Shown one piece after another: positions 15,890-61,312 of a stretch of DNA of 64,000 nt. Source of the stretch: Salinispira sp. (GTDB taxonomy: Bacteria > Spirochaetota > Spirochaetia > DSM-27196 > Salinispiraceae). The DNA lies in contig CBDDDG010000021.1 in NCBI GenBank assembly GCA_965226555.1, forward strand, positions 32,001 through 96,000, written 5' to 3'. The notes beneath the pieces are model-generated. The model was not told the DNA's origin. It searched no databases and saw only the letters and a program-made list of their open reading frames with translations. The position numbers were made by a program, and so were the translations under genes. Numbering within the stretch: the stretch's first letter is position 1; each line of letters starts with the position of its first letter.

Positions 15890-15894
15890 TTTTG

Positions 15895-37471: not shown

Positions 37472-37485
37472 CCCGTGTTAAAAAC

Positions 37486-37559
<74 letters not shown>

Positions 37560-37694
37560 ATATACACAGTAAAATGCTAGCATATCGGCTTCCGGCTGTC
37601 AATTCAGGCAAACTTTTCGCCACCTAAAGTGCCGATGTACAACAGTGAACTCATCCGGCGCGGCGCGCAACAGTGAATATCTGTCTATGAGAAC

Positions 37695-38406: not shown

Positions 38407-38423
38407 TACCTGCCTCCCAATAA

Positions 38424-38478
38424 GAATTTTTTTGCTACTGGAAATTGTGCAAGCACAATTTCCCAATGCAAAAGTTTC
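38424..38478. mobile_element. MITE copy upstream of Panacea gene 1
   Basis: TTTTGCTACTGGAAATTGTGCAAGCACAATTTCCCAATGCAAAAGTTTC. Confidence 0.75.
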
Positions 38479-38670
38479 TGTAATGATAATAAGAAAAAAG
38501 AGGAGAAGTGTAAACTAATTTCTTCGATAATTGTGGGATATCAAACGGCAGAAGAGAAATACAACGCGCATCATCAATGACAGAACCCCACTTGATAATT
38601 CCCCGATTTTTCACTATCCTCAATTTTGCTAGGAAATTTCGTCATTGGCAGAAGGTTTGCGGGAATTATA

Positions 38671-41655
38671 ATGGGAAACGAGCAGCAGATAGAAGCTGAG
38701 CTCCTGAATACACTTCAGGAGCTGAAATATGACTACAGAGATGATATTAAAGATAGGGCGGCGCTGGAGTCCAATTTTCGTGAAAAATTTGAGGCGCTCA
38801 ACAAAGTCCATCTGACCAATAGTGAGTTTGCGCGCCTTCTGGAGCACATTATTACTCCCGATGTCTTCGCTGCATCCAAAACCCTGCGATCGCTGAACGA
38901 CTTCCTGCGGGAAGATGAAACCCCGCTGAACTACACATTAGTGAACATTAAAGATTGGTGCAAAAACACCTTCGAAGTTGTGAACCAGCTCCGCATGAAC
39001 ACGGCGAACAGCCACCACCGCTACGATGTTGTGTTACTCATAAACGGTGTTCCGCTCGTGCACATTGAGTTAAAAAACCGCGCTGTCAGCCCGCAGAAAG
39101 CCATGCAGCAAATTGTCCAGTATAAAGATGATTACGGCAGCGGATACAGCCGAACATTAATGTGTTTCATGCAGATATTCATTGTCAGCAATGACACGAC
39201 CACCTGGTATTTTAGCAACAATAACAAACGCCACTTCGGCTTTGATGTCGATGAACACTTTCTGCCGCGGTATACATTTGCCGACCAGAATAACAAAAAA
39301 ATAACCCAGCTCAATTCCTTTGCAAAAGCATTCCTTGCCAAATGCGCGCTCGGAGAGATGATTAGCCGCTACATGGTACTTGTCGCAAGCGAACAGAAAC
39401 TTCTCATGATGCGCCCCTACCAAATATATGCGGTTAAAAGAATTGTGGAATCCATTCATAATAACTGCGGCAACGGGTACATCTGGCATACAACGGGGAG
39501 CGGAAAAACCCTGACATCCTTCAAGGCCTCCACCTTGCTGAAAGATAATGCGAGCATTGAAAAATGCCTATTTGTTGTTGACCGGAAAGATTTGGATCGC
39601 CAGACCCGCGAAGAGTTTAACCGCTTTCAGGAGGGCTGCGTGGAAGAAAACACAAACACGGAGGCCCTGGTTGAGCATCTGCTGTCAGATGACTATGCCG
39701 ACAAAGTAATTGTTACCACCATTCAGAAACTCGGGCTGGCATTGAGCGAAACAAACACGCGCAACTATAAAAAACGTCTGGAACCCCTGCGCAACAAACG
39801 GCTGGTATTCATTTTCGATGAATGCCACCGTTCGCAGTTTGGCGATAATCATAAGGCCATAAAAGAATTCTTCCCGAAATCGCAGCTCTTCGGTTTTACC
39901 GGAACCCCCATTTTTGCCGATAACGCAGCGCACATAACAATTGACGGAGAAAAAGCATCGTACAAGACCACTGCCGATCTATTTCACAATGAACTGCACG
40001 CCTACACCATTACGCACGCCATTGAAGATGACAATGTTCTTCGTTTTCATGTCGATCATTACCAGCCGGAGGGCGCAAACAGCCCCCGCCCGGGCACTCA
40101 CGCGGCGAAAGAGGCTATTGTTGAAACCATTTTGAAAAGGCACAACGCCATGACACGCAACCGTAAATTCAATGCCCTCTTAGCAACTGCCGGCATTAAC
40201 GATGCCATTGACTACTACAATCTGTTCAAAGAGATACAGAAACACCGGAAGACAGATGACGACAGTTTCATGCCATTGAACATTGCATGCGTGTTCTCTC
40301 CGCCCGCGCAGGGAAGCTCCCCCGAGAACGCACAGGACATTACACAAATTCAGGAAGACCTGCCGCAGGAGAAAAAAGATAATGCTGTGGAACCGGAAAA
40401 AAAGAAAAAAGCGCTCAGTTCCATTATTGCGGACTATAATGCCCGGTACAACACCAACCACAGCATCAATACATTCGATCTCTACTATCAGGATGTGCAA
40501 AAACGCATTAAGGATCAGCAATTTTCGAACTCCGATCTGCCGCATAATGAGAAGGTGGATATTGTGATTGTTGTTGATATGCTGCTCACCGGCTTCGACT
40601 CCAAATTTCTGAACACCCTGTATGTCGACAAGAACCTAAAATATCAGGGGCTCATTCAGGCGTTTTCACGAACAAACCGCATATTAAATGCAACGAAACC
40701 CTTTGGCAGCATTCTGGATTTTCGCCAACAGCAGAATGCGGTGAACACTGCCATTGTTCTCTATTCCGGCGAGGCCGGCGAGCGCGCAAAGGAAATATGG
40801 CTGGTTGATGAGGCGCCGACGGTTATTGAAAAATTGGAACAGGCCCTTACAGAGTTGAGCAATTTTATGCGGTCCCAGGGGCTGGAGTGCAATCCTTCAG
40901 AAGCGGCGAACCTCAAAGGAAATGCCGCCCGCGGTCAATTCATTAATTTGTTCAAGGAAGTCCAGCGCCGCGCAACCGAGCTTGATCAATATACCGACCT
41001 CACCGAAGAACACAGGCAGAGCATTGACAATGCAATATCGCCCGAGAATTTGCAGGGGTTCAGGGGCGTGTATCTTGACATGGCGCGGACGCTGAAGGAG
41101 CAGCGCGATGAGGAAGGCGAGCCGGATGATCCCGACACGAATGACCTCGATTTTAAGTTCGTTCTGTTTGCCTCGGAGCTCATCGATTATGATTACATTA
41201 TGAAGCTCATTGCCGAATACACGAACGCGCCGCCGGAGAAGAAAAAAATGAATCGCGAGCAGTTGCTTGCTCTCATTCAAGCCGATGCCAAGTTTCTGGA
41301 TGATCGTGATGATATTGCCGACTATATTGATACCCTCGCCGTCGGTGAGGGCTTAAGCGAAAAACAGATTAGGGACGGCTACGAATCCTTCAAGAACCAG
41401 AAGAATGAAGACAGGCTGGCAAACATTGCTGCCAATTACGGTATAGAAAACGCTGACTTGCAAAAGCTTGTCGCTCTCATTCTGCGGCGCATGATTTTTA
41501 ACGATGAGGACTTAACCGCCCTGTTCATGCCATTGGAACTCGGCTGGAAGGAGCGCGGGCGCAAAAAGCAGGCAATGATGCGGGAGCTCATTCCGATCCT
41601 GCGCAAACAAGCACATGGCCGCGAAATTTCAGGGCTGGACGTGTATGACTACTAA
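38671..41655 (+). CDS. hsdR: Type I restriction enzyme R subunit
   Basis: DVVLLINGVPLVHIELK, HTTGSGKT, DECHR, FTGTP, IQAFSRTNR. Confidence 0.96.
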   Translation: MGNEQQIEAELLNTLQELKYDYRDDIKDRAALESNFREKFEALNKVHLTNSEFARLLEHIITPDVFAASKTLRSLNDFLREDETPLNYTLVNIKDWCKNTFEVVNQLRMNTANSHHRYDVVLLINGVPLVHIELKNRAVSPQKAMQQIVQYKDDYGSGYSRTLMCFMQIFIVSNDTTTWYFSNNNKRHFGFDVDEHFLPRYTFADQNNKKITQLNSFAKAFLAKCALGEMISRYMVLVASEQKLLMMRPYQIYAVKRIVESIHNNCGNGYIWHTTGSGKTLTSFKASTLLKDNASIEKCLFVVDRKDLDRQTREEFNRFQEGCVEENTNTEALVEHLLSDDYADKVIVTTIQKLGLALSETNTRNYKKRLEPLRNKRLVFIFDECHRSQFGDNHKAIKEFFPKSQLFGFTGTPIFADNAAHITIDGEKASYKTTADLFHNELHAYTITHAIEDDNVLRFHVDHYQPEGANSPRPGTHAAKEAIVETILKRHNAMTRNRKFNALLATAGINDAIDYYNLFKEIQKHRKTDDDSFMPLNIACVFSPPAQGSSPENAQDITQIQEDLPQEKKDNAVEPEKKKKALSSIIADYNARYNTNHSINTFDLYYQDVQKRIKDQQFSNSDLPHNEKVDIVIVVDMLLTGFDSKFLNTLYVDKNLKYQGLIQAFSRTNRILNATKPFGSILDFRQQQNAVNTAIVLYSGEAGERAKEIWLVDEAPTVIEKLEQALTELSNFMRSQGLECNPSEAANLKGNAARGQFINLFKEVQRRATELDQYTDLTEEHRQSIDNAISPENLQGFRGVYLDMARTLKEQRDEEGEPDDPDTNDLDFKFVLFASELIDYDYIMKLIAEYTNAPPEKKKMNREQLLALIQADAKFLDDRDDIADYIDTLAVGEGLSEKQIRDGYESFKNQKNEDRLANIAANYGIENADLQKLVALILRRMIFNDEDLTALFMPLELGWKERGRKKQAMMRELIPILRKQAHGREISGLDVYDY

Positions 41656-42892
41656 CAAAACGCAGAAGGCACTGGTTCCGAAACTGCGCTTTCCTGAATT
41701 TCGGGAATCTTTAGGCTGGACAACTAAAGCAGGAAACCAAATATTTTCACAAATAAGTAATAAAAATCACGATTCAAATTTGTCAGTATTGGCAATTACA
41801 CAGGAGCATGGTGCAATTCCAAGAAATCAAATCAATTACCATGTATCTGTTAGTAAGGAAAGTATTGATGGATATAAAGTCGTAGAGATCGGGGACTTCA
41901 TAATTAGTTTGAGATCTTTTCAAGGAGGCATTGAATACTCAAAATATCAAGGATTATGTAGCCCCGCGTATATAATTCTTAGAAACAGAACAGGAATTAT
42001 GAATGACTATTTTATTCATCTATTTAAAACAAAACATTTTATTCGGGATATGGCTAAAAATATTGAGGGCTTACGTGATGGTAAAATGGTTAGTTATAAA
42101 CAATTTTCTGAATTAATGCTGCCTTATCCATTAGCCGAAAAAGAACAACAAAAAATTGCACATTGTCTGTCTTCTATTGATAAGGTCATTGAACTGGAAG
42201 GGCAAAAGCTGAATGCCCTGCGTGATCATAAAAAGGGCCTCCTGCAAAACCTTTTTCCCGCTGAGGGTAAAACACTTCCGAAATTTCGCTTTCCGGAGTT
42301 TCGGGATAGTTCAAAATGGATAATTAAGACATTGGATGAAAATCTGATTCAACGAAGTCAAAGAAATAAGGAATCAAAATATAATCGAATTCTTAGTGTG
42401 AACAATACGAAAGGGTTTATTTTACAATCTGAACAATTTGTGGATAAACAGGTAGCAAGTAATGATTTATCACCGTACAAAATAGTTCATAAAGGTTGGA
42501 TAGCCTATAACCCTTCAAGAATAAATATTGGATCCATTGCGATCTTAGAACAATTTGAAGCTGGAATTGTCAGCCCTATGTATGTGGTTTTTGAGGTGCA
42601 AGAAGATAAAATAAATCCATATTTTCTGTTATATTTTGTAGATACTCATACATGTAATCAAAAAATTAAAATGGCGTGTTCCGGTAGCGTTCGCGATACA
42701 TTATCGTTTGAAGCGCTATGTAATCTCGAAATTGCATTGCCAAGGAAAAAAGAACAACAAAAAATCGCTGAGTTCTTATCTACAGCGGATAACATGATCA
42801 CCGCGCAGGAACAAAAGATCGCATCATTAAAAGCGCATAAAAAAGGCCTCTTGCAGCAACTTTTTCCCAACCCTGAGGAGGTCGCTAAATGA
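41645..42892 (+). CDS. hsdS: Type I R-M specificity subunit
   Basis: Duplicated PK(L/F)RFPEF and EQQKIA...KKGLLQ.LFP around two AT-rich TRDs. Confidence 0.95.
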   Translation: MTTNKTQKALVPKLRFPEFRESLGWTTKAGNQIFSQISNKNHDSNLSVLAITQEHGAIPRNQINYHVSVSKESIDGYKVVEIGDFIISLRSFQGGIEYSKYQGLCSPAYIILRNRTGIMNDYFIHLFKTKHFIRDMAKNIEGLRDGKMVSYKQFSELMLPYPLAEKEQQKIAHCLSSIDKVIELEGQKLNALRDHKKGLLQNLFPAEGKTLPKFRFPEFRDSSKWIIKTLDENLIQRSQRNKESKYNRILSVNNTKGFILQSEQFVDKQVASNDLSPYKIVHKGWIAYNPSRINIGSIAILEQFEAGIVSPMYVVFEVQEDKINPYFLLYFVDTHTCNQKIKMACSGSVRDTLSFEALCNLEIALPRKKEQQKIAEFLSTADNMITAQEQKIASLKAHKKGLLQQLFPNPEEVAK

Positions 42893-42900
42893 CTCTATGT

Positions 42901-42969
42901 GCTGAGCATTCTCGCATTTTGTAGAAAGTTTTGCTACTGGAAATTGTGCTTGCACAATGCAAAAGTTTC
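42901..42969. mobile_element. MITE copy just after hsdS
   Basis: Inverted GAGAATGCT linker plus GAAAGTTTTGCTACTGGAAATTGTGCTTGCACAATGCAAAAGTTTC. Confidence 0.75.
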
Positions 42970-43010
42970 TTATAGTTTTTTATGGTATATTATATGTATC
43001 GGGAGGTGCT

Positions 43011-43475
43011 ATGAATATTGATACAGTGGTTAATGTCATTCTTCAATTAGCGAATAAGAAAAAACTTATTGTGCGGCCAATGAAATTACAAAAACTTCTT
43101 TGGTTTGCTCATGGTTGGTATATGGTATGGAATAAAGATTCAGAATTAAAGGGATTAATTTCTCATTCTTTTGAAGCATGGCCGTATGGACCTGTTATTC
43201 CTTCTGTTTATCATGAGTTCAAACATTTTCGTTCCAATCCTATTGATGATTTTATGTATAGAAATAATGATGAGTACTATACATCTACCAATGCGCAGGT
43301 GAAATATGTTTGTGGAGAAGTTATACGAGTTTATGGAGAAATGACCGACATATACTTATCGGGTCTAACGCATAATTTAAATGGCGCGTGGTGGAAAGCC
43401 TTTTCAAAAGGCATGGGAAGTGTAATAGATCAATCGGATATTTTCGAGGAATTTAGTGAAAAATCAAGCGGATGA
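43011..43475 (+). CDS. Panacea (DUF4065) antitoxin, second copy
   Basis: PMKLQKLLWFAHG, FEAWPYGPVIPSVYHEFK, LTH..NGAW; RBS GGAGG. Confidence 0.88.
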   Translation: MNIDTVVNVILQLANKKKLIVRPMKLQKLLWFAHGWYMVWNKDSELKGLISHSFEAWPYGPVIPSVYHEFKHFRSNPIDDFMYRNNDEYYTSTNAQVKYVCGEVIRVYGEMTDIYLSGLTHNLNGAWWKAFSKGMGSVIDQSDIFEEFSEKSSG

Positions 43476-43763
43476 GTTTAAAGGGTTTACCGAAGAAAAA
43501 ATCCCACAACCACATAATAAATTGGACTCTTTGGACTCTTCAAATCCTGACAAAAAAGAAGAGAAAGCGCATAGTACAAAGTTTTGCAAAATGCAAAACT
43601 TTCTATAAAATAGGAGAATGCTAAGCACAAAGAAAGTATTCCAGATCGGAAACTTTGGCTACTGGAAATTGCGCAAGCGCAATTTTCCAATGCAAAAGTT
43701 TCTAGTAGAAGATTACACAGATTAGCAACAGCACGATGGACTATATGGGGAGGAATATTGAGT
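43456..43763 (+). pseudogene. Putative PanT partner gene interrupted by a MITE
   Basis: GAGGA-GTG start overlapping the panA end; removing the element and one TAGTA restores ...EEKAHSRRLHRLATARWTIWGGIL. Confidence 0.55.
43577..43702. mobile_element. 126-bp composite MITE with 5-bp TSD TAGTA
   Basis: TAGTA|CAAAGTTTTGC...GCAAAAGTTTC|TAGTA (43572-43576, 43703-43707). Confidence 0.85.
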
Positions 43764-43764
43764 A

Positions 43765-43786
43765 GAAACTTTTGCATTGGAAAATT
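43765..43786. mobile_element. Truncated MITE end, inverted orientation
   Basis: GAAACTTTTGCATTGGAAAATT. Confidence 0.65.
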
Positions 43787-43851
43787 TCATGAAGAAATAC
43801 CCATTTAATCCTGAATTATTCCGAGATGCGCAGGAAGAGACGCAAAAATGA
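43777..43851 (+). pseudogene. 3' remnant of a lost gene formerly coupled to hsdM (possibly a PrrC-like anticodon nuclease)
   Basis: LENFMKKYPFNPELFRDAQEETQK* ending in an ATGA overlap with hsdM. Confidence 0.4.
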
Positions 43852-45461
43852 CCGCAAAAATGCAAAAACAATTGGGGGAAGTCCTCTGGGCAATTGCCGA
43901 CCGGCTGCGGGGCGCAATGAATGCGGACGATTTTAGAGATTACATGCTCTCATTTATTTTCCTGCGTTATATTTCGAGTACCTATGAAAATTCCGCACGG
44001 GAGGAATTGGGACCAGACTACCCCGAAAAAAATTCTGCGGACGCTGGAACCCCATTGCAAACATGGTATACGAACAATGCCGACGACATTGACGAATTCG
44101 AAGAAACCATGCGCCGCAGCGTTCACTACGTGGTGCAGCCCGAGTACCTGTGGAGCCATATCTCTGAACTGGCGAGAACTCACAATGCCCACCTTCTCGA
44201 CACCCTTCAGAGGGGCTTCGCATACATTGAGAATGAATCATTCAAAAGCACCTTTCAGGGGCTTTTTTCCGAAGTCAACCTCACATCTGAAAAGCTCGGA
44301 AGGAATTATGAGGCTCGGAATACACTGCTTTGCAAAATTGTCAATGAAATAGCGAGGGGGCTGAACGAATTCCCGACCAACAGCGACATTTTGGGCGATG
44401 CCTATGAATACCTCATTGGTAAATTCGCTGCCGGAGCGGGCAGAAAGGCAGGTGAGTTTTATACTCCGCAAATCCTCTCCAGCATTCTCTCTGCCATTGT
44501 CGCGCTCGACAGTCAGGACCCATCGCAGGGCGAAAAGAAACACCTTGAAAGCGTTTTTGACCCGGCCTGCGGGTCGGGTTCCCTGCTTCTGAATGTGCGA
44601 AAGCGACTCGGCCCGCATGGCATTGGCAAAATTTATGGTCAGGAAAAAAACATTACTACCTACAATTTGGCGCGCATGAACATGCTTCTGCATGGGGTTA
44701 AGGACTCTGAATTTGAAATGTACCATGGCGATTCGCTGACCAACAATTGGGATATGCTCAGAGAACAGAACCCCGCCAAAAAAACCTCTTTCGATGCCGT
44801 GGTGGTGAATCCTCCCTTCAGCTTGCGCTGGGATCCATCGGATGCTCTGGCGGATGATATGCGCTTCACAAACTATGGGCTTGCCCCCCGATCGGCTGCC
44901 GACTTCGCATTTCTCCTGCACGGGTTTCATTACCTGAAAGATGACGGCACCATGGCAATTATTCTGCCCCACGGTGTTTTGTTCCGCAGCGGCGCAGAAT
45001 ACAGAATGCGCCGCAAGCTCCTGCGAGATGGACACATTGATACTATCATTGGTCTCCCTCACAACCTCTTTTATTCAACGGGTATTCCCGTGTGCATTGT
45101 GGTTCTCAAGAAATGTAAGAAGCCCGATGACATTCTGTTCATTGATGCCAGTAAACAGTATGAAAAAGGCAAACGTCAGAATTATCTGGAAAAAGAACAC
45201 ATCGATAAAATCATAGCAACGTATCAATTCCGTAAGGAGGAGAAGCGCTACTCCCGCTGTGTTTCCATGGAGGAAATTGATGAGAACGATTACAACTTAA
45301 ACATTTCACGCTACATCAGCACCCAGGAACCCGAAAAGGAAATTATTCTCAAAGACGTACATTATGCCATACAAACTTTGGAAAGCGAGATTAGCGAGAA
45401 CACAAACGTGCATAACAGCTATCTGGAAGAGTTAGGCTTGGACCCCCTGCCGCGTTCCTGA
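43848..45461 (+). CDS. hsdM: Type I R-M methyltransferase subunit
   Basis: LGDAYEYLI, GEFYTP, DPACGSGSLL, NPPF, YNLNISRY. Confidence 0.97.
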   Translation: MTAKMQKQLGEVLWAIADRLRGAMNADDFRDYMLSFIFLRYISSTYENSAREELGPDYPEKNSADAGTPLQTWYTNNADDIDEFEETMRRSVHYVVQPEYLWSHISELARTHNAHLLDTLQRGFAYIENESFKSTFQGLFSEVNLTSEKLGRNYEARNTLLCKIVNEIARGLNEFPTNSDILGDAYEYLIGKFAAGAGRKAGEFYTPQILSSILSAIVALDSQDPSQGEKKHLESVFDPACGSGSLLLNVRKRLGPHGIGKIYGQEKNITTYNLARMNMLLHGVKDSEFEMYHGDSLTNNWDMLREQNPAKKTSFDAVVVNPPFSLRWDPSDALADDMRFTNYGLAPRSAADFAFLLHGFHYLKDDGTMAIILPHGVLFRSGAEYRMRRKLLRDGHIDTIIGLPHNLFYSTGIPVCIVVLKKCKKPDDILFIDASKQYEKGKRQNYLEKEHIDKIIATYQFRKEEKRYSRCVSMEEIDENDYNLNISRYISTQEPEKEIILKDVHYAIQTLESEISENTNVHNSYLEELGLDPLPRS

Positions 45462-45483
45462 CCCGCATTCAGAGGTTTTATCC

Positions 45484-46062
45484 ATGAGAAATGTTACCGC
45501 TACAATCCGACTCGCCGCGCTTCTTACGGTTTTTCTCTGTTCCTGCGCGACAGCGCATCAATCTGCAAAAATCGACCCACACGCAAAAATCGACCAGCCC
45601 CCCGAAAAATCTGCCGAATCTGAAAAATCCACATCTGCCAAAAAAATCGACCAGCATGCCAAAAAAGAACTATTCCAAGTAAGCGGAGAAGTATACAATG
45701 AGGTTTTCCATGAAGTGCGGAGAATTATTCAGGAGCTCGATGATATTATTCAGGGCAGGCAATTTTCGGCATGGCTTGAATACTTGAGCGATGACTACCG
45801 AATGCGCTATAATGACCCCGAGACCCTTGAGGTAATTTCGGGGAGTAGACGGCTACGCGCTGAAAACATTATACTGAAGAACATTGAAGATTTTTTTACC
45901 CATGTGGTGGTGCCGAGCAGGGTACATTACCGGCTGGATAAGCTTATTTTCATTAGTGAAGTAGATGTAGAGGCAATTATGATTGTTAATAATGAATCGA
46001 TAGTTGCATATCAACTACATTTTACAAATGGGTATTGGAAAATTATTGATAATACTATATAA
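45484..46062 (+). CDS. Hypothetical lipoprotein
   Basis: Lipobox FLCSC; DFFTHVVVPSR. Confidence 0.75.
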   Translation: MRNVTATIRLAALLTVFLCSCATAHQSAKIDPHAKIDQPPEKSAESEKSTSAKKIDQHAKKELFQVSGEVYNEVFHEVRRIIQELDDIIQGRQFSAWLEYLSDDYRMRYNDPETLEVISGSRRLRAENIILKNIEDFFTHVVVPSRVHYRLDKLIFISEVDVEAIMIVNNESIVAYQLHFTNGYWKIIDNTI

Positions 46063-46081
46063 TTGTGCCGATATCATAAGA

Positions 46082-46106
46082 GAAACTTTTCCAATGCAAA
46101 AGTTTC
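46082..46106. repeat. Collapsed MITE-family palindrome upstream of the HEAT gene RBS
   Basis: GAAACTTTTCCAATGCAAAAGTTTC. Confidence 0.6.
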
Positions 46107-46120
46107 TACAAGGAGCATTT

Positions 46121-49020: not shown

Positions 49021-51651
49021 TCATATGAAGTAACCTTCAAAATTCTCTGCTAATTGCAGTTCAAAGCGTTCATATATTCGTATGTGGACTCTGGTTTTCA
49101 AATAATTTCGTTTTTCTTCCTCAGAGCCGTATTCTTTAAGCCAATTGGGTTCGTCTTTTAGGATATCTTCCAGTGCTTTGTGATCTTCAGATAGGGGACG
49201 TACATCTATCCAAAGTCTATCGACAATACCTTCTGAACTTTCACCTTCAGGTACAGGCGACCATTGTATCAATTTTCCAAACTTATTTTTATTGAGAATT
49301 ACTATGCCTTTCTCATATTGATGTATGGGAGGTGAATAATACACCGGAATTTTCAATTCATTGAATGTTAACTCACCTGCCCACTGTGACGGTGGATTAT
49401 GCGTATGGTTTATTTCTGTGAAATTATTATTCCTCCATAAATCACTATAGGATTCGCCAATAGCACATATGAAGTAGTCATTTTTTACTTCTAACTGACT
49501 GAGAAATTCATTCAGAGACTCAACACGTGGTTCTTCACAATGTTTTATTATTTCCTGAAGTATTGCACGCGATTCAGATATTCCCAAATCGTCACCATAA
49601 ATCTGCCCCCGGTTGTCATAGTTAACATGCCATTTTTCAAAAAAGGCAGCTTTATCAGATACTTTATTTAGTGAAAAATAATTCACAGAAGGGGCTGGAG
49701 ATGAATCCGTTTTATTTTCAATTGCTTCCCTCTCATTTAGTATGGTCCTTATTGGATTTTTTTGATCAGCGGCTTTAACAAGACATTCTTTGAACTCAGA
49801 AACTTTCTTCTGGCTAATTGGTTGTTGCGCAATTATATGTTCTAATTTGGTATCAATGTTATTCCGTAGATCTGAAAGATAGTCTTGCACCTGCTCTTCT
49901 AATGCAGACGGTTTTTTTTCTATGCCCAATTTTCTTAAAAATGGTTCGTTTTTCTCTTCCTCAAATATCTTTTTCATGTGTTTTTCAATATCGTCAATTT
50001 TATCTTGTAAACTGCGTAGGGTAAATTGATCGTAGTTTGATAGATTCACATTTGAATTGTCATTTGATGATGTTTGAGAATCAATTTGTGGAAGATACCG
50101 AAGAATGAGAATTGCATAATATTGCCGATAATAAAATTCTGAATCCTGGTGATTAGCAAAAAAAGGAAAAGATGTAGTATACGTATACCATGATTCTCCC
50201 GCAATAAGAAGTATGACCTTGTCCATACTATTTGGGTAAATATCATTCCCGCCCCACCATATTGTAGAATTTCTTGGTTGCTTAAATCCCCAAATTTCTA
50301 CTATATAGTCATATTCTTTGCTGAAAAGGCAATATGCCGCGATTCCATTTACCATTTTGAGTAATAGGTTAAACCGTAACTGCAGGGAAACATTTTTGTA
50401 GATAGTTGCTTTTTTATTATGTACATCTAGTGAAGGATCAATATTATTAATGGAAGTAAGAACCTTCTCACATTTCTGTTTCCATTCATTAAACGCGGTG
50501 AGAGAGTAAATGTTTTCGGCTAATGAAATTAAGGAAGATAGTAATGAATGTATCTGCCAGTATAAAGCACTATGTTCTTTGGTTGCCTTTCCCCATACTG
50601 CCCACCTAATTTTCTGCATTTCCTGATGAATATCTGGTAAGGGAATTCCATCAATAAATTGGAAAAGGAGAAAGGAAAATAAGCTCGTATCCCTTTCTCG
50701 AACTATTGCCTGACAGATAGTAAAAAAATGTTGATTAACAATATCAATGTAGTCGATTCTGAAGGCATATTCTTCTAATGGCGAAGTCTCAAATACTATT
50801 TTAGTGTACCAGTCAATAGAAGAGAATGCATTTGTTGGATTTTTCTGTATTGTGTCAATTCCAATTTGTGTCATTACGTTCAGGACAACTTTTATTATTG
50901 AATTGTTATTTTGCTTATTTGTTAATTCTCTTAATACTCTCTGCAACTGATTATTAATTGGATCTCCGTTTGAGAATAAATTACTCTTTAATGCTTCATC
51001 CTTTAATCTTTTAATTTGATTCAAAAAAGTCGATGTTATTGGGTAGTAGGTTTCGGGTCTTCTCAGGAGAATCCTATGCTTTATTGATTCTGGATCTGGG
51101 TCTTCCAGTTTTTCCTGTAGTATTTTAAGTAAACGATCTACAAAGTTAGTCAATTCGTCATGTAGCAATTTTTTCTTTTCGTTACGCAATACATAAACAA
51201 GCAGATCGCCAATATCTTCGATTGAGGGGATTAAATTTGTATTTTTTTTCCGATGTACTTTTTTATCAAGTTCCCGATAGAGCGCTTTTAGAATGTACTT
51301 TGTATTGTGCACCAATTTTTTGGTAATTTCTAAGCATTGGAACAGAAAAATAATTGAAAAGACTAATATAATTACTGATGATATGGTTATAAGACATACC
51401 AAAACATCAGGGAGGAGCTCCTGAAAAACGTAAAAACTGATTGGCAGTATAATATTAGAGGCAAGCAACAATGGGAGGAGGATACGAAACGCGAGTTTCT
51501 TATCGTAGATTTTGCTTGCTACTTCTGATCCAAATCGATTAGCCAAGTTACTTATGGTGTTTGTGGTGAATGGAATAAAAACAGCTAATACTGCAATGCT
51601 GAAAGAAGCAATTATTGTGTAAAGTGTTGGATCAGGGGTGAAATTACACAT
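49021..51651 (-). CDS. 876-aa protein: about 3 N-terminal TM helices, long helical middle, C-terminal HK97-capsid-like region (inferred)
   Basis: Long AT-rich ORF; hydrophobic N-terminus; C-terminal order PIS..(NPIRTIL)..LGISESRAIL..KIPVYYS..GIVIL..RVHIRIYERFEL. Confidence 0.8.
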   Translation of the reverse strand: MCNFTPDPTLYTIIASFSIAVLAVFIPFTTNTISNLANRFGSEVASKIYDKKLAFRILLPLLLASNIILPISFYVFQELLPDVLVCLITISSVIILVFSIIFLFQCLEITKKLVHNTKYILKALYRELDKKVHRKKNTNLIPSIEDIGDLLVYVLRNEKKKLLHDELTNFVDRLLKILQEKLEDPDPESIKHRILLRRPETYYPITSTFLNQIKRLKDEALKSNLFSNGDPINNQLQRVLRELTNKQNNNSIIKVVLNVMTQIGIDTIQKNPTNAFSSIDWYTKIVFETSPLEEYAFRIDYIDIVNQHFFTICQAIVRERDTSLFSFLLFQFIDGIPLPDIHQEMQKIRWAVWGKATKEHSALYWQIHSLLSSLISLAENIYSLTAFNEWKQKCEKVLTSINNIDPSLDVHNKKATIYKNVSLQLRFNLLLKMVNGIAAYCLFSKEYDYIVEIWGFKQPRNSTIWWGGNDIYPNSMDKVILLIAGESWYTYTTSFPFFANHQDSEFYYRQYYAILILRYLPQIDSQTSSNDNSNVNLSNYDQFTLRSLQDKIDDIEKHMKKIFEEEKNEPFLRKLGIEKKPSALEEQVQDYLSDLRNNIDTKLEHIIAQQPISQKKVSEFKECLVKAADQKNPIRTILNEREAIENKTDSSPAPSVNYFSLNKVSDKAAFFEKWHVNYDNRGQIYGDDLGISESRAILQEIIKHCEEPRVESLNEFLSQLEVKNDYFICAIGESYSDLWRNNNFTEINHTHNPPSQWAGELTFNELKIPVYYSPPIHQYEKGIVILNKNKFGKLIQWSPVPEGESSEGIVDRLWIDVRPLSEDHKALEDILKDEPNWLKEYGSEEEKRNYLKTRVHIRIYERFELQLAENFEGYFI

Positions 51652-51746
51652 ACATATTCCTGCCTGCGCAGTATATTACAAATTGTTGTGTGGGTCAGTA
51701 AATTGCACAACCAGTACGCCACTAAATCCTCGCCCGTTTAGACGTG

Positions 51747-51916
51747 GGGGCAAATTTGAGTTTCATTTCGCGGTCATTGTATGTGTCCGATATTCATCAT
51801 GCCCCATAAATGTATTCAGCTTATCGGTAATAAGCTCGCGCCGTTTTTCCAAAAAATCATCGTACTTATCAAGAGTCCATAAGGACGGATCAATAGGAAT
51901 ACATTGTTGGATTAAG
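51747..51916 (-). pseudogene. 170-bp copy of the gmrSD 3' end
   Basis: Matches 53356-53525 with 3 substitutions. Confidence 0.9.
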
Positions 51917-52038
51917 TGGCCGAACCGTTGCGGGATCGGAATCAATTTGATTAACAATGCACTAAATAAATACTGAAAATTTGATAAAGTGAATAATAAT
52001 GATTAAATTTATTCATAAGCCACAAACGGAGGAGATAT

Positions 52039-52740
52039 ATGGATATACCAACAAAAAGAATTGCCGTCTTAATTGACGCAGAAAATTTGTCCGTAAATTA
52101 CGCCAAGATAATTTTTGACAAAGTGTCATCATACGGCGATGTTATTGTTCGAAGGGCCTACGGCTTTGAAGGAACCTTCAAGAAGTGGAAAAAAGCGGCA
52201 TTTACACATGCCGTTAATTTTAAACTATGTCCGCACCAAGTCAAAAACAAGGGAGTGACTGATATAGCCATAGTCATTGATGCCATGGAATTAATGTATA
52301 GGAAAACGGTAGATGACATTTGTCTGGCAACCAGTGACAGCGATTTTAACACATTGGCGATGAAATTGCGGGAGGAAGGCATAAAAGTCTACGGAATAGG
52401 AAAAAGCAATACAGTGCAATCATTTATTAAATCATGTAATGAATTCCATACACTGCCGGACAAAGACGATCAAATTAATAATAAAGAAACAGTAGAAGCG
52501 GTTGAATTACATGAACAGGAACTACGGGGAATGCTTTTATCTGCCTGTGAAAATCTTCCCAGTGACAATGAGGGATGGATCAATCTGGCAAGTGTGGGGA
52601 GTTATATAAAAAGAATAAGTCCGCAATTTAATCCTCCTCAAAAACTTCTTGATCTGGTAAAAAGCATGGAGGAATTTTTTGATATCGACAAAGTCCCCAG
52701 ACAAAATGCGCCGGATGTGGCTTATATAAGGAAAAGATAA
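52039..52740 (+). CDS. NYN-domain (LabA/DUF88 PIN-like) protein with OST-HTH/LOTUS domain
   Basis: IAVLIDAEN, RRAYG, TDIAIVIDAM, TSDSDF, GWINLASVGSYI. Confidence 0.9.
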   Translation: MDIPTKRIAVLIDAENLSVNYAKIIFDKVSSYGDVIVRRAYGFEGTFKKWKKAAFTHAVNFKLCPHQVKNKGVTDIAIVIDAMELMYRKTVDDICLATSDSDFNTLAMKLREEGIKVYGIGKSNTVQSFIKSCNEFHTLPDKDDQINNKETVEAVELHEQELRGMLLSACENLPSDNEGWINLASVGSYIKRISPQFNPPQKLLDLVKSMEEFFDIDKVPRQNAPDVAYIRKR

Positions 52741-52791
52741 AATGATCAATTTACCTTTTATGCAGATTGCTTTTCTTCTTCAGATATAACA

Positions 52792-53142
52792 CTAAATTTT
52801 CTTCCATATTCTATAGAATTTTTTTGATCTTCGCAGGAACTCTTTTGAGCTCTGTGAGGATACAGCTTCTACGATTTCTTCACTCATAACTATTAGACCA
52901 CATTGATTACAAATATAGCCTGATGTTCCTGGCGGATTGATGAATGTTGAGATGATTTTATTATTTAATAGTGTCTGATGAGGACAGAATGTTTGTGCTT
53001 TTCGTTTTAAACGTTCTTTCCTCTCCTTCAAAAAAACATTCAGATCAAATTTAAAAGAAACAGAGAATGAAATTTTAATAAGACAGATTGAAACAATTGA
53101 TAAAAAAGCTATCCAGATTATTTGTGAAATATCCATACCCAT
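52792..53142 (-). CDS. Small protein with one TM helix and CPH...CxxC Zn-ribbon-like motif
   Basis: Hydrophobic N-terminus; FCPH and CNQC; RBS AAGGAG. Confidence 0.6.
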   Translation of the reverse strand: MGMDISQIIWIAFLSIVSICLIKISFSVSFKFDLNVFLKERKERLKRKAQTFCPHQTLLNNKIISTFINPPGTSGYICNQCGLIVMSEEIVEAVSSQSSKEFLRRSKKFYRIWKKI

Positions 53143-53227
53143 CGTATCTATATGTACTCCTTTACTAAAAACCCGGACACAGTTCTTTTCGGAACCATGG
53201 TCGGTTTATTGATATAACCGAATCTCC

Positions 53228-53430
53228 GCTAACCCCCCGCCCGTTTCGGCTTGCTGGGGCAAATTTGAGTTTCATTTCGCGGTCATTGTATGTGCCCGAT
53301 ATTCATCATGCCCCATAAATGTATTCAGCTAACCCCCCGCCCGTTTCGGCTTGCTGGGGCAAATTTGAGTTTCATTTCGCGGTCATTGTATGTGCCCGAT
53401 ATTCATCATGCCCCATAAATGTATTCAGCT
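53228..53430. repeat. Exact 100-bp tandem duplication at the gmrSD stop
   Basis: 53228-53327 equals 53328-53427; GCT junction microhomology. Confidence 0.9.
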
Positions 53431-55084
53431 TATCGGTAATAAGCTCGCGCCGTTTTGCCAAAAAATCATCGTACTTATCAAGAGTCCATAAGGCCGGATC
53501 AATAGGAATACATTGTTGGATTAAGGTTTCTTTTCCCTGCTTTTCAATAATGGTTTGTAAATAATCTGCTGGAATTGTATCGCTGATTTTTTTGTTTGTA
53601 CGCCCGCTGATAAAGCCAAGATTGGCAATGTCATTTATTTTTTCTTTGGCAACTTTATTTTTCAAAATACTTTGCGGGAAAATGTGATGAAATTGCAGTT
53701 TATGTTCAGCGCCGGAATGATTGAGGGAAATGCCCAATCTTGTGAACCAATCTTTTGCACCGCTCTCACGGAAAATGAGGAACATGGTTTTGAAATAAGC
53801 ACTTCTATTGTTTTTGCTCTCTAAATCAGAGGCAACTACCTCAAGGCGGCCGAATTGTGTACGAAGAAGCCCTATCATAGACGAAATATCTTTTCCTTTT
53901 CTAATAGCGCTCAAATCCTGATTAAGGTACGTTTCACTGGAACCGCGGGAATAACGTCCTTTTGCATTGGCAACTAAAAGCCAATATCGCAGGTTATCTC
54001 CCTGCTGTGGAATTAATGAAAACCTATTTTGTTGGGCAAAATACCCCAATGTAATAATTAAGGATGGGTTAGCCAGTAAAGCAGGGCTGTCAATACGCAC
54101 ATTACTTTTGAGAAAATTCAATGCAAAATTAAATCCCTCTTTTGATTTTTCCCAACCTTCCTCAAGCTGCTTTTTTGATAGGCTGGATACTGTTTTGAAT
54201 TGGGACTGACCAGTAGTAAAAGCAACAAGGTTTTTTATATAAATACCAATGGGGTAATCGAAGCCTGTGTCTTTACATTCTTTCTGAAATTTCTCAAAGA
54301 TTTTCAGAGAATTTGGCCACTTAGCGGTAATTTGCGCCAGTGCTAAATCAGAACCGCGCAGCTTTGCTCCGAGTGAGTTTACCCGGACAAAAATTTCCGT
54401 TACTTCCTCGTACGATTTGCTCCGTTCCAGTACATGCACATCGTACTCATATTTCTTAATATCACGCAACCGCTTAAGGCGATCTGCGTACTTTCTATAA
54501 CGGGGATCATTGAAATTCTCAATACCACATTTTTGCAGCAGTTCGATGTCATCGCCATTTTTAAATACTTCTTTTACTGACACCCAATGTGCAATGCTGG
54601 CAAGACGCGGAGTTTTCACTACAAACGCCATCTGTTCCATACGTTTAAGAACATCTTCCTCGCTGGCGTCGGCTTCGTCATCAAAATCAGAAATGGTTTC
54701 GTTTACTTCTGTCACCACTTTTAATTCATGTGGATGCTCAAGGTTAAACAAAATATCAATCGGATGCTTGAGGCATTTTACGTAAAGGGGTTCATCGCGC
54801 AAAATTGCGGAAAGCGAGGTAAGGCGTTGCTGACCGTCCAGCAATAGTTGAAATGTTCCGGCAGAGTTAGACTCCTGTGATATTGCAAAGTCGTGTGTGG
54901 TCACATCATCACCGGCCTCCCATGTAAGAATGGTACCGGAAGGATAGTTACGGTAAAGCGAATCCAGTAAGTCGCGTATACGTGTTTTCGGCCATACGTA
55001 GCGGCGCTGCATTTCAGGGAGCCTAATTTCTCCGCGTCTAATTTTGGACACTAACTCTTCAATATTACACGATTGTTTTCCCAT
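53372..55084 (-). CDS. GmrSD-family type IV restriction protein (DUF262 + DUF1524)
   Basis: PEMQRRYVW, LLDGQQRLTS, IFVRVNS, HHIFP...IANL..N. Confidence 0.9.
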   Translation of the reverse strand: MGKQSCNIEELVSKIRRGEIRLPEMQRRYVWPKTRIRDLLDSLYRNYPSGTILTWEAGDDVTTHDFAISQESNSAGTFQLLLDGQQRLTSLSAILRDEPLYVKCLKHPIDILFNLEHPHELKVVTEVNETISDFDDEADASEEDVLKRMEQMAFVVKTPRLASIAHWVSVKEVFKNGDDIELLQKCGIENFNDPRYRKYADRLKRLRDIKKYEYDVHVLERSKSYEEVTEIFVRVNSLGAKLRGSDLALAQITAKWPNSLKIFEKFQKECKDTGFDYPIGIYIKNLVAFTTGQSQFKTVSSLSKKQLEEGWEKSKEGFNFALNFLKSNVRIDSPALLANPSLIITLGYFAQQNRFSLIPQQGDNLRYWLLVANAKGRYSRGSSETYLNQDLSAIRKGKDISSMIGLLRTQFGRLEVVASDLESKNNRSAYFKTMFLIFRESGAKDWFTRLGISLNHSGAEHKLQFHHIFPQSILKNKVAKEKINDIANLGFISGRTNKKISDTIPADYLQTIIEKQGKETLIQQCIPIDPALWTLDKYDDFLAKRRELITDKLNTFMGHDEYRAHTMTAK

Positions 55085-55254
55085 AATTATTGACCATACA
55101 TAATTTTTCATATATTATCAATGGTGTAGGTCGTTCGGTTCCCAAGGCTGGGTTGCCCGAGACCTGCTTTTTTATACCTTTATAATACCTTTTGTCCTGT
55201 GGTTCCTGTTAGCCGGATACTCACCATGCCTGCCTGGAGGTGGAGCACAACTTC

Positions 55255-56705
55255 TCAATAGGCAATAATCTCATTATACCATGACGGAAACGCTACATCG
55301 TTCGTTTGTCCGCGACCCACCCTGGAAGCCCCAAACATAGTGGTGACCGTTACGGTATATTTGTTATTTACCTTCGTCCAATGTTCCTTCCATTCCTCAA
55401 GATCGAGATTGAATGCGCTTGCGTCATTGAACATACCTGACATATCCGTTACCGATCTGACATCCCATCCGGAAATATCGCCATTGAATGCGCTTGCGCC
55501 AAAGAACATATAGCGCATAGTCGTTACCGAACTGACATCCCAGTCGGAGATATTGCCATTGAATGAATCTTTGTTAAGGAAAATATAGGACATATCCGTT
55601 ACTGCCGCGGTAATAATGTAGTTGAGATTGCCAGTATTGCCCCATGTTGATATCCCCGTAGTTACCGCTGCGCTCAGTTCAGCGTTAGATGTTGGACTCA
55701 CGGTAACAGAGAAATACTCTGCAAAGAGTATGTCTCCGCTTTCTGTTTCACCATATACCACATATGTTCCTGCCGTTGTACTCGCGGTAACCGTAACAAT
55801 TCCGGTACTCGCATTAACTGTCGGAATGGTGACTCCTACGGGTGCAGTTGCGGGGGTTACCTTCAGGTCTCCTCCATCAAAATCGAGAGTGCCCGATTCC
55901 ACCGTGGTCAAAGAAACGCTGAGGTTCAGGTTCTCATTGGCAATACCGGCAGTAACAATGGCATTATCGGCAGCCAAAAGGCTTATAGAATTTTCCGTAC
56001 CCGAAGGAGTCTGTGTCGGAGGAAATGATGGCAGCGGTTCCGTTACGGGTGCAGACCAGGGTCCAGCACCCTCCGCGTTGATGGCGCGCATCTGCACGTG
56101 GTAGAGAGCGCCGTTTCTCAGGCCGGTAATGGTGTGGTCTGTTCCGGTGATGCCGGAAGCATATGTCCATGCTCCGCCGCCTTCGCGATATATCAGCTCA
56201 TACCCGGTAATGGCACTGCCGTTATCATCCGGTTCAGCCCATCTCGCAACGATCCGCCCAGTGCCCGCATAAAGGGTTGGGGCAGCCGGCGCGTCAGGAA
56301 CGGTGGCGGGGGGAGTTGCAGCGGCAGGGAGAGTTTCAACGGCAGATTCCGACCATGGCCCAGCGCCGACTGCATTGACGGCGCGCGCCTGTACGTGGTA
56401 CTCGGCTGCGTTTGTCAGGCCGGTAATGGTGTAGTTTGCGGCTGGCGCGGCGAGTGCAATTATCGCCGACCACGTGGTACCGCCGTCCGCGCTATGGTGA
56501 AGGTGGTATGTGGTAATTTCACTGCCGCCGTTGTTCGGAGCAGTCCATGTAGCAATGAGTCGCTCATTCCCCGCTTCAAGGTTTGGGGCACCTATTTTGC
56601 CCGGAGGGGTTGCCGCTGGTTCCGGCATGGGACATCCCGCCATCAATACAATAAAAATTGTGCAGAATGCGAAGAGAGTTACCCCCCCCTAAATTTGATC
56701 CTCAT
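55255..56705 (-). pseudogene. Lipoprotein with two FN3 domains and BspA/DUF285 repeats; signal peptide frameshifted at a G8 tract
   Basis: FNGNISDWDVSSVTTMRYMF repeats; ATG at 56705 reads MRIKFRGG*, one extra G restores ...VTLFAFCTIFIVLMAGC. Confidence 0.8.
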
Positions 56706-56778
56706 ACATTACCTTCATAAGGTTTCATTACAGTATAGGGGAAGCTCTGGTACTTGACCAGCTCCGTGCCTGCCGGAG

Positions 56779-59712
56779 CTAATGATCGTCCATGGCAAAC
56801 ACGCTGACACCGTCATCGACGACTCCCGTGACAAACAGATATGTAACGCTGCCGATGACGGCAGTCGTCAGCGCGTTGGAGCCGTTAAGATGCAGGGTGG
56901 AAGTGTCAGCAATATTATCGACATTTGTGAGTGTTCCTTCGGCGTTTACCCTGAACATACTGATTCCATTATCCAATAATCCTACGACAAACAGATAGGT
57001 AATGCCGTTGATTACAGCAGTCGTTATGTCGCTGGCAGTGCGAAGATGCAGGGTGGCATTGTCGGTTTTGTTGTCAGTATTCTTGAGGAATCCGGTATTG
57101 CTTATTAAAAACACGCTGACACCGTTGTCGAAGTATCCGGTGACAAACAGATAAACGGCGTCATTAATGGCAGCAGTCGCCAGACCCCATGCTCCATCAA
57201 GTTTCCGTAAGAAAGTGTCATAGACATAGTGCTTATATTCAAGTGTTCCCGCATTGTCTGCCGAAAACATGGTGACAGCGTCTTCGGTGAATGACGCGGC
57301 AAACAGCAAGGCAGTCCCTCCAATTTCGACAGCCGTCAGTCCCTTGGGCGCGGCAAGCTTCAGAAAGGACGTATCAGGTTCATTGTCGACATTTGTGAGT
57401 GTCCCGTTGCTGTTGACCCGAAACACACTAATGCCGTAATCACTGCTTCCGGCGGCAAACAGATACGTAGCGTTTCCAATGACAGCGGTCGTCAAAGTGC
57501 TGCGGTCAAGAAACAGGTTGTCCGTATCAGGTTCATTGTCGACATTTGTAAGTGTTCCGCCGCTGTTGACTCGAAACACACTAATGCCGTTATCAATGGC
57601 TCCGGCGACAAACAGATAAACTGCGTTTCCAACTTCAGCGGTTGTTACATCGCTGGCTCCTTCAAGAAACAGGTCGCCCGTATCAGGTTCATTGTCGACA
57701 TTTGTGAGTGTTCCGCCGCTGTTGACCCGAAACACACTGACACCGTTAGAAGTGTATCCGGTAACAAACAAATAAACGGCGCCGCCGACTTCGGCAGTTG
57801 CTACACTGCTGACGTCATCAAGATTCAGGTTTCCGCTATTGCCGATGTTTGCGGTGTTATTGCTGAATCTGGTGGTTGGAGTGCCAGTGGAAGATTCCGA
57901 CCATGCGCCCGCGCCCTGCGCGTTGACGGCGCGCACCTGCATAGGGTAGGGGAGTCCGCTAATGAGTCCTCTAATGGTGTGGCTTGTGCCGGTAATGCCG
58001 GAGGCGATCTGCGTCCAGTCTCCGTTGTCTTCGCGATATTGCAGGTTATACGCGCTAATTGCGCTGCCGCCGTTGTCGGCGGGGGCTGTCCATGTAACAG
58101 TGAGTGAGCCCCTTCCCGCGGTGAGTGTTGGAGGGTTAGGAGCGGCAGGAACGGTAATGGGGGTTGCGGTGGAAGGCTCCGACCACGCGCTTTCGCCCAG
58201 CGCGTTGACGGCGCGCACCTGCGCCTCGTAGACCCTGCCGTTTGCCAGCCCGGTAATGACGCGGTTCATGGAAGTGCCAAGGCCAGACGCAATAGTAATG
58301 TTCTTCCAGATTCCGCTGCCGTTCTCGCTATAGCGCAGGTAATACGCGCTAATTGCGTTGCCGCCGTCATCGGGCGCTGTCCATGTTGCGGTAAATGAAC
58401 TGTTACCCACTTCGAGGACGGGAGCCTTCGGCGCGGCGGGAACGGTGGCAGGGGCGGCGGTGGAAGGCTCCGACCACGCGCCTTCGCCCCGCGCGTTAAT
58501 TGCGCGCACCTGCGCCTCGTAGACCCTGCCGTTTGCCAGCCCGGTAATGACGCGGTTCATGGAAGTGCCAAGGCCAGACGCAATAGTAATGTTCTTCCAG
58601 ATTCCGCTGCCGTTCTCGCTATAGCGCAGGTAATACGCGCTAATTGCGTTGCCGCCGTCATCGGGCGCTGTCCATGTTGCGGTAAATGAACTGTTACCCA
58701 CTTTGAGGACAGGAGCCTTCGGCGCGGCGGGAACGGTGGAGGGGGTGGCGGTGGAAGGCTCCGACCACGCGCCTTCGCCCCGCGCGTTAATTGCGCGCAC
58801 CTGCGCCTCGTAGACCCTGCCGTTTGCCAGCCCGGTAATGACGTGGTTCATGGAAGTGCCAAGGCCAGACGCAATAGTAATGTTCTTCCAGATTCCGCTG
58901 CCGTCCTCGCTATAGCGCAGGTAATACGCGCTAATTGCGCTGCTGCCGCTGTCGGTCGGCGCAGTCCATGACATGGTGAGCGAAGCGTCTCCCACTTCGA
59001 GCCTCAGATCGGTCGGCGCGGCAGGGAGAGTGGGATCGGGGGCAGCGGTGGAAGGCTCCGACCACGCGCCTTCGCCCCGCGCGTTAATTGCGCGCACCTG
59101 CACGGCATAACTGATGCCGTTTGCCAGCCTGGTAATGACGCGGTTCATGGAAGTGCCAAGGCCAGACGCAATAGTAATGTTCTTCCAAATTCCGCTGCCG
59201 TCTTCGCCATGGCGGAGGTTATACGCGCTAATTGCGCTACCGCCGTTATCGGGCGCTGTCCATGTTGCAATGAGTTGCCCATTTTCCGCTTCAAGGGTTG
59301 GGGCAGCCGGCGCGGCAGGAACGGTAATAGGGCTTGCCGTGGAAGATGTCGACCAGCCACCAGTGCGCTGCGCGTTGGCGGCGCGCACCTGCACGGCATA
59401 ACTGATGCCGTTTGTCAGCTCGGTAATGGTATGGCTTGTGCCGGTAATACCGGAGTTAATCTCTATCCAGTTTTCACTGCTCATGTGACGATAGCGCAGG
59501 TTATATTCAGTAACATCGTTTCCCGCGTTGTTGCTCCTCCAATTCCATGTAGCAGGATCAATCCACGAAGCAGTAAGTTGTCCGTTCCCTGCTGCGAGAG
59601 TCGGAGCAAACATGGCAGGCGGCGCAGTGAGCATTGGACATCCGGCAATCAATGCAATGGATATTGAGCAGAAAATGAAAAGGGTCATTCTTTTGTATGA
59701 CGTAATTCTCAT
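56779..59712 (-). CDS. Surface lipoprotein: six FN3 domains plus a seven-repeat beta-propeller-like domain
   Basis: Lipobox LIAGC; WTAP..GG.AI..Y...VQVRA.NA.G.G.WS x6; YLFV.G....GVSVF-type repeats x7. Confidence 0.88.
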   Translation of the reverse strand: MRITSYKRMTLFIFCSISIALIAGCPMLTAPPAMFAPTLAAGNGQLTASWIDPATWNWRSNNAGNDVTEYNLRYRHMSSENWIEINSGITGTSHTITELTNGISYAVQVRAANAQRTGGWSTSSTASPITVPAAPAAPTLEAENGQLIATWTAPDNGGSAISAYNLRHGEDGSGIWKNITIASGLGTSMNRVITRLANGISYAVQVRAINARGEGAWSEPSTAAPDPTLPAAPTDLRLEVGDASLTMSWTAPTDSGSSAISAYYLRYSEDGSGIWKNITIASGLGTSMNHVITGLANGRVYEAQVRAINARGEGAWSEPSTATPSTVPAAPKAPVLKVGNSSFTATWTAPDDGGNAISAYYLRYSENGSGIWKNITIASGLGTSMNRVITGLANGRVYEAQVRAINARGEGAWSEPSTAAPATVPAAPKAPVLEVGNSSFTATWTAPDDGGNAISAYYLRYSENGSGIWKNITIASGLGTSMNRVITGLANGRVYEAQVRAVNALGESAWSEPSTATPITVPAAPNPPTLTAGRGSLTVTWTAPADNGGSAISAYNLQYREDNGDWTQIASGITGTSHTIRGLISGLPYPMQVRAVNAQGAGAWSESSTGTPTTRFSNNTANIGNSGNLNLDDVSSVATAEVGGAVYLFVTGYTSNGVSVFRVNSGGTLTNVDNEPDTGDLFLEGASDVTTAEVGNAVYLFVAGAIDNGISVFRVNSGGTLTNVDNEPDTDNLFLDRSTLTTAVIGNATYLFAAGSSDYGISVFRVNSNGTLTNVDNEPDTSFLKLAAPKGLTAVEIGGTALLFAASFTEDAVTMFSADNAGTLEYKHYVYDTFLRKLDGAWGLATAAINDAVYLFVTGYFDNGVSVFLISNTGFLKNTDNKTDNATLHLRTASDITTAVINGITYLFVVGLLDNGISMFRVNAEGTLTNVDNIADTSTLHLNGSNALTTAVIGSVTYLFVTGVVDDGVSVFAMDDH
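58170..59250 (-). repeat. Near-identical 291/297-bp FN3-coding tandem repeats
   Basis: GCGCACC anchors at 58213, 58504, 58795, 59092. Confidence 0.85.
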
Positions 59713-59766
59713 AATGTTACTTTCTCAAGGTAATATATGGGCTCTTAAACCTTTGGACTGCCCCTG

Positions 59767-61137: not shown

Positions 61138-61312
61138 ACATTACCTCCATAAGGTTTCATTACAGGGAAGCTCTGGAAACATGGGTATTTCACACTGCTA
61201 TCGCGGAAATAGCGTTTTTTAAGCTCCACTGTGCTATAGTATAGTCAAAAAATTCGTTTGTGTCAAGCACATTTTCGAATTTCTGTGGGATATAAACCTT
61301 TGGACTGCCCTG

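Follow-up and report, generated by a model that had tools for sequence, protein, structure and literature searches.

A predicted HK97/encapsulin-fold domain in a membrane-anchored, defence-associated bacterial protein family

The window analysed here, the whole 64,000-nt stretch of a Salinispira sp. contig, contained an ORF for an 876-aa protein, confirming the observation of a preliminary description of this DNA, together with genes encoding a GmrSD-family nuclease, a NYN protein, and a 116-aa protein, all in AT-rich surroundings (GC 33-42% across 49-55 kb; Table 1). The 3' end of the GmrSD gene recurs 95 nt upstream of the start codon of the 876-aa gene, with the second copy at 53356-53525 and a third partial copy near 53226-53330 (window 51719-53525). 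Since the NYN and Zn-ribbon genes lie between the two repeat copies, the 876-aa gene probably once directly followed the GmrSD gene, its likely original direct upstream neighbour, as homologs follow RM genes; recombination between the repeats could remove a block of 1,609 bp. Elsewhere in the window, an HNH-like nuclease and a DNA methyltransferase-like gene formed a pair among housekeeping genes (15293-16680), and a family of ~53-nt palindromic repeats (37418-46110; copies near 37418, 38430, 42924, 43649, 43763, and 46082) flanked two SocA/Panacea antitoxin genes, one of which (42957-43475) was located between hsdS and hsdM of a type I RM locus. In addition, four tandem secreted-looking proteins with fibronectin-III-like repeats, a beta-propeller-like tail, and long GY(D/N) pentapeptide arrays were encoded at 55255-63223. 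In the host genome (93.5% complete), 43 RM-like ORFs were detected by BLAST, and no match to PF04454 or PF05065 was found.

Table 1. Features of the 876-aa gene and its neighbours, in window coordinates.
Feature	Position	Strand	Evidence or remark
Whole gene: 3 TM helices, alpha-solenoid, and predicted HK97/encapsulin-fold domain	49021..51651	-	Fused form; most of the family occurs as a two-gene pair
Membrane module, residues 9-115, three hydrophobic helices	51307..51627	-	Hydropathy, structure model, charge bias, split/fused comparison
Alpha-solenoid, predicted cytoplasmic, residues 117-604	49840..51303	-	Only generic HEAT/ARM or helical-repeat matches
Best-conserved solenoid stretch, residues ~439-515	50107..50337	-	Alignment conservation
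Predicted HK97-fold domain, residues 605-876	49024..49839	-	Structure model and structural comparison; closest to Family 1 encapsulins
Truncated E-loop hairpin, residues ~642-666	49654..49728	-	Secondary structure of model; R-to-E spacing
Spine helix, residues 681-702	49546..49611	-	Model; register with encapsulin spine helix (weak: 15/300 shuffles reach it)
Conserved three-helix insert, residues ~820-852	49096..49194	-	Model, conservation, alignment
170-nt copy, 98% identical, of GmrSD gene 3' end	51747..51916	.	Upstream of the 876-aa gene
NYN + OST-HTH protein	52039..52740	+	Pfam; between two direct repeats
116-aa protein, hydrophobic N-terminus	52792..53142	-	Weak Zn-ribbon match, E 0.0015, below cut-off; between direct repeats
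GmrSD-family (HEC-05-like) nuclease	53372..55111	-	Pfam; PADLOC E 5e-49; co-oriented with 876-aa gene

Profile searches of the 876-aa protein against Pfam and NCBIfam returned no match, PF04454 and PF05065 included, and neither library detected a P-loop NTPase or an enzymatic effector domain. The best hit in PADLOC-DB 2.0 (library of 2023) had an E of 0.013 over 46 residues, with no profile match; searches of 17 family members against PHROGs gave no naming match, and sequence searches of the PDB gave no match naming the protein.

Hydropathy revealed three hydrophobic segments starting at residues 10, 57, and 83, in agreement with the structure model and with the approximately three N-terminal TM helices first described. 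The stretches flanking these segments contained 0, 5, 0, and 9 Lys/Arg residues, a charge distribution suggesting an N-out topology with the long remainder, and hence the bulk of the protein, in the cytoplasm. Among the 65 homologous loci that cover the TM module as well as the beginning of the solenoid, the TM module was encoded by a separate, overlapping upstream gene in 51 and fused in 14, although some of these assignments could be assembly errors. In a quick tree built from 55 distinct rows, 12 of them fused and one of them the window's gene on a long branch, the split/fused label changed seven times, all changes being forced by starred branches. Since the TM and soluble parts stayed together through these changes, the two modules likely work as one unit. 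The overlap was in the +1 frame at 39 of 41 distinct junctions, with the stop at nearly the same position, and an ATG preceded that stop by 17-26 nt in 37 of the 39. This conserved overlap, with repeated fusion, was seen at L001, L002, L003, L004, L006, L009, L015, L017, and metagenome loci, and is a candidate for translational coupling or programmed frameshifting.

Residues 1-610, covering the membrane module and solenoid, were predicted to form no beta-sheet, and searches with the solenoid returned generic matches only, revealing no recognisable effector. Within its best-conserved stretch, the family consensus reads GAYCLFK...WEYKQP.DSDA.W.G and H-H-G, polar motifs that could possibly represent a binding site.

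For the C-terminal region, the structure model and structural comparison bore out the HK97/encapsulin fold proposed in the preliminary description. The model follows the HK97 order of N-terminal element, E-loop hairpin, spine helix, A-domain, and long P-domain strands. Family 1 encapsulins were the closest structures, with podophage procapsids nearly tied, and among the top 24 structural matches cellular encapsulins were nearer than most phage capsid proteins. Thus, of the earlier phrase "domesticated capsid subunit", the capsid fold stands, whereas an origin from phage rather than from a recruited encapsulin is not favoured. Identity in structural alignments to any solved capsid was ~10-15%, and no significant sequence link of the domain to encapsulins or phage capsid proteins was found, hhalign of the family against 20 encapsulins giving a P of 0.15, inside the range of 20 shuffles. 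The domain begins with a helix (H10-26 of the domain model) in place of an extended N-arm, aligning from encapsulin residue 8, and its register against encapsulin was reached by 3 of 300 shuffles in a post hoc comparison. Collectively, a predicted HK97 domain in a membrane-anchored, defence-associated protein is well supported.

Two regions of the predicted fold differ from encapsulins. The spacing from the conserved Arg635 to the spine residue Glu693 was 55-62 residues in 142 of 143 family rows but 82-91 in all 20 encapsulins, indicating that the E-loop region is ~24 residues short, as the preliminary description had perceived. Moreover, the three-helix insert (helices at residues 824-851 of the model), in which P, W, L, G, Q, and L are kept, separates the final two long strands, which a short turn connects in the encapsulin consensus, and would occupy the P-loop position. 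According to the accessible part of 10.1101/2022.09.09.507160, the A-domain forms the capsomer core, whereas the E-loop and P-loops mediate contact from one capsomer to the next and at the three-fold axes, suggesting that the ring-forming part has been kept and the lattice-forming parts altered. A short E-loop and an insert at the P-loop position are traits that a chain terminator would show, and the protein might accordingly be pictured as a decoy acting without cell death, whose domain co-assembles with phage capsid and ends lattice growth while the anchor tethers the aborted heads. This is distinctly unlikely, because the low identity to solved capsids makes co-assembly across diverse phages doubtful and the conserved 490-aa solenoid is left unexplained.

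The altered loops also bear on the possibility that the family has no defence function and is a mobile accessory gene that merely gathers alongside RM genes in variable regions and encodes a membrane-tethered compartment or scaffold. Fused and TM-bearing encapsulins provide a precedent for it (PMC8346489). In fused Family 1 encapsulins, the N-terminus lies inside the shell (PMC8346489). By rough arithmetic, however, 60 solenoids (56.5 kDa each) would take up ~4,100 nm3 of an assumed T=1 lumen of 4,200 nm3; a T=3 shell would be overfilled, and a T=4 shell has room, yet the TM helices would still be enclosed. The membrane-tethered closed shell raised earlier is therefore unlikely, given its remodelled lattice-contact loops and a 56-kDa solenoid that would about fill the T=1 lumen.

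A profile built from 17 sequences recovered 1,075 clusters at E<=0.001 among 1.84 billion representatives, the best 150 of which were listed. The 19 loci and 78 metagenome loci came from Patescibacteria-type candidate phyla, Cyanobacteriota, Pseudomonadota, Spirochaetota, Bacillota, Verrucomicrobiota, and others, and one plasmid carried a member. Nevertheless, the spread was rare and patchy, with members in 0 of 60 relatives of the host; two other groups, counting their centres, yielded members in 3 of 401 and 5 of 151 genomes. No member was detected in viral contigs (0 of 54 pattern hits) or in the phage genomes searched. Several alleles were visibly damaged: L048, L049, L050, and L094 represent a decaying allele with several frameshifts and stops at shared positions, and L110 has an internal stop. 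P0141, a database protein in which the HK97 domain follows an N-terminus resembling a ribosomal protein, is likely a chimeric assembly.

The family comprises two chassis. The window's gene represents the short one, whereas members of the long one are ~1,050 aa in length and differ in TM region and middle; between the two, the helical parts show only a distant alignment, whose score is dominated by the shared tail. In nine of 15 long members, the HK97 domain was 87-90% identical to that of a short member, whereas the preceding 250 aa had no BLAST match below E 0.18 to short members. These nine form one clade, and the quick tree needs five label changes, of which well-supported branches force only one, indicating at least one swap of the domain between the subfamilies.

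For the neighbourhood analysis, 97 loci were collapsed to 73 at 95% nucleotide identity, and one or more neighbouring ORFs of >=90 aa were present for 64 of these; up to three neighbours per side, each of at most 600 aa, were scanned (232 in total). An RM or GmrSD gene was located within three ORFs at 30 of the 64 non-redundant loci (leaving out L040, L069, and the ParB-linked methylase of L009), upstream at 28 and directly upstream at 21, with 27 of the 28 co-oriented. In a BLAST-based baseline from the one host genome, an RM-like ORF lay that close to 199 of 2,327 ORFs (8.6%), a comparison in which simple tests overstate the enrichment owing to relatedness among the loci, seven of which have one methylase and GmrSD-HNH pair in common. 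The RM kinds varied (type I, II, IIG, III, ISP, and GmrSD), as expected of a hotspot, and AbiE, HEPN-nucleotidyltransferase, KAP NTPase, PIN, and Fic genes were also present at several loci. Together, these family-wide data strengthen the defence reading of the preliminary description. An EcoRI-type adenine methylase and/or GmrSD-HNH gene stood directly upstream of both short and long members at L013, L023, L025, L033, L062, L070, and L072. Among four further loci, L107 was beside ResIII and a methylase, L109 and L110 were beside an AAA-ATPase or a toxin-antitoxin gene, and L108 had housekeeping surroundings. At 34 of the 64 loci no RM gene was found within three ORFs, many of the contigs being short, and cyanobacterial loci L007, L014, L018, and L108 were surrounded by housekeeping genes. 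This housekeeping context fits the non-defence possibility, which we nonetheless regard as unlikely overall, since RM adjacency is far above the host baseline, the lattice loops are remodelled, and DyP, ferritin-like, and other typical cargo Pfam families were absent among the 232 neighbours, many of which had no Pfam match.

Head-module genes were equally scarce: no capsid, portal, or protease family occurred among the 232 neighbours, and a terminase appeared at one of the 64 loci (L009), so the earlier statement that neither head-module nor cargo genes lie nearby extends to the scanned loci with this single exception. At L009 (10093-13166), the terminase large subunit and a ParB-methylase lie on the opposite strand directly downstream of the homolog, possibly as a prophage remnant. 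That the family is itself a remnant or variant of a phage head gene, as this terminase and the near-equal scores of podophage procapsids might suggest, is highly improbable and largely refuted by the lack of relatives in the viral contigs and phage genomes, the lack of head genes nearby, and the intact TM-solenoid architecture across many phyla. Likewise, compared with HK97-type major capsid proteins (HRP29, T7 procapsids, HK97 gp5, and T4 gp24), the family is without a head module, is absent from the viral collections searched, and has remodelled lattice loops and a membrane module.

Family 1 encapsulins (PF04454; 7bcv, 9b9q, 3dkt, and 2e0z, as well as Flp- and cytochrome-fused forms) are the closest known shell proteins, but the 876-aa protein differs from them by its lack of a PF04454 match, its shorter E-loop (by ~24 aa), a helical insert of roughly 30 aa, a 600-aa TM-solenoid extension, and an RM neighbourhood with no cargo gene at the scanned loci. 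The Mesorhizobium Family 3 encapsulins with a TM extension are likewise HK97-fold proteins fused to membrane helices; in the accessible part of PMC8346489, they have four to five C-terminal helices, a phage-capsid-family (PF05065-type) shell, and a biosynthetic cluster, whereas in the 876-aa protein the helices are N-terminal and often a separate gene, a solenoid lies between, the loci are defence-related, and PF05065 does not match. N-terminally fused Family 1 and TM-extended Family 3 encapsulins are thus the closest in print, and the tested features exclude membership of either. The literature search found no description of the family, or of a capsid-fold domain within a defence protein, although it could appear without a name in large tables of predicted defence genes; in line with the initial impression that this is not a described system, the family is real and widespread and apparently undescribed to date. 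Its novelty lies in architecture and genomic context, its function being putative.

CapRel and Lit are capsid-sensing defences, and in mouse the Gag-derived restriction factor Fv1 is a host-kept, capsid-derived protein acting against incoming capsids. With Fv1 the 876-aa protein would share the concept only, by analogy, the fold being unrelated and the domain of life another. A closer comparison is Avs8A, for which HK97 capsid proteins are a known immune trigger and whose sensor consists of solenoids or tandem repeats, according to the accessible part of PMC12236752. The likeness comprises a phage capsid protein as the (here proposed) trigger and a repeat-like helical region; Avs8A combines a STAND NTPase with an Mrr nuclease, neither of which the 876-aa protein has, whereas a capsid fold of its own is a feature of the 876-aa protein that the accessible text of PMC12236752 does not describe for Avs8A.

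Judged from sequence and context, the 876-aa protein is likely an anti-phage membrane protein, and a defence function, all such readings taken together, is quite probable. The leading reading, a capsid-fold bait coupled to a membrane effector, is tentative (probability roughly 0.4): the HK97 fold would have been turned into an immune receptor, a lattice-incompetent bait that would bind phage heads during their assembly and set off a membrane effector. The bait would be a swappable module, carried by two or more different TM-solenoid chassis and present in one- and two-gene forms. The TM module would hold the protein in the inner membrane, leaving the remainder in the cytoplasm, and the HK97 domain, keeping the N-helix, spine, P-sheet, and A-domain but with a short E-loop and a helical insert in the P-domain hairpin, would take part in or seed a capsomer-like ring but would not extend a lattice. 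Late in infection, when phage capsid or scaffold protein is abundant, its binding to the bait would bring several copies together, and clustering, via the solenoid, would join the TM bundles, depolarising the membrane and aborting infection, while also draining capsid subunits to the membrane. In most genomes, where a separate, overlapping gene encodes the TM module, the product of that gene would dock on the solenoid. This reading is proposed because the HK97 fold is predicted with remodelled lattice loops, RM/GmrSD genes are near 30 of 64 loci against the 8.6% baseline with a patchy spread, the TM and soluble parts are kept together, the HK97 domain is shared between subfamilies, and HK97 capsid proteins are a known trigger of Avs8A (PMC12236752, accessible part). 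Against it, the domain resembles cellular encapsulins more than it does most phage capsids and has no significant sequence link to either, no effector is recognisable, 34 of 64 loci are without nearby RM genes, and some cyanobacterial loci are housekeeping. High conservation of the domain also sits awkwardly with an arms race; being conserved and swappable between different solenoids, the domain resembles a structural module, and this points to another anti-phage arrangement, in which it serves as a self-oligomerising hub whose penta- or hexameric ring makes the TM helices a gated pore while the solenoid senses a phage protein, a nucleotide, or RM inhibition. The proximity to self-assembling encapsulins with a retained A-domain, the polar motifs in residues 439-515, the tight position directly behind RM genes, which fits a guard role, and the sensing of Avs8A by solenoids or tandem repeats (PMC12236752, accessible part) all agree with it, but the ring and pore are putative and many simpler oligomerisation domains exist, leaving it somewhat unlikely.

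The cellular uses of the HK97 fold found in print are encapsulin compartments, and the present family points to immunity instead. If the bait reading is true, it would represent a bacterial capsid-against-capsid defence, opening a route to understanding how roles pass between encapsulins and phage capsids, and offering a means of examining or blocking the assembly of heads. With the rival reading of a self-oligomerising hub, too, the family would provide a capsomer-built membrane complex of a new type, and homologs from cultured cyanobacteria make the idea directly testable.
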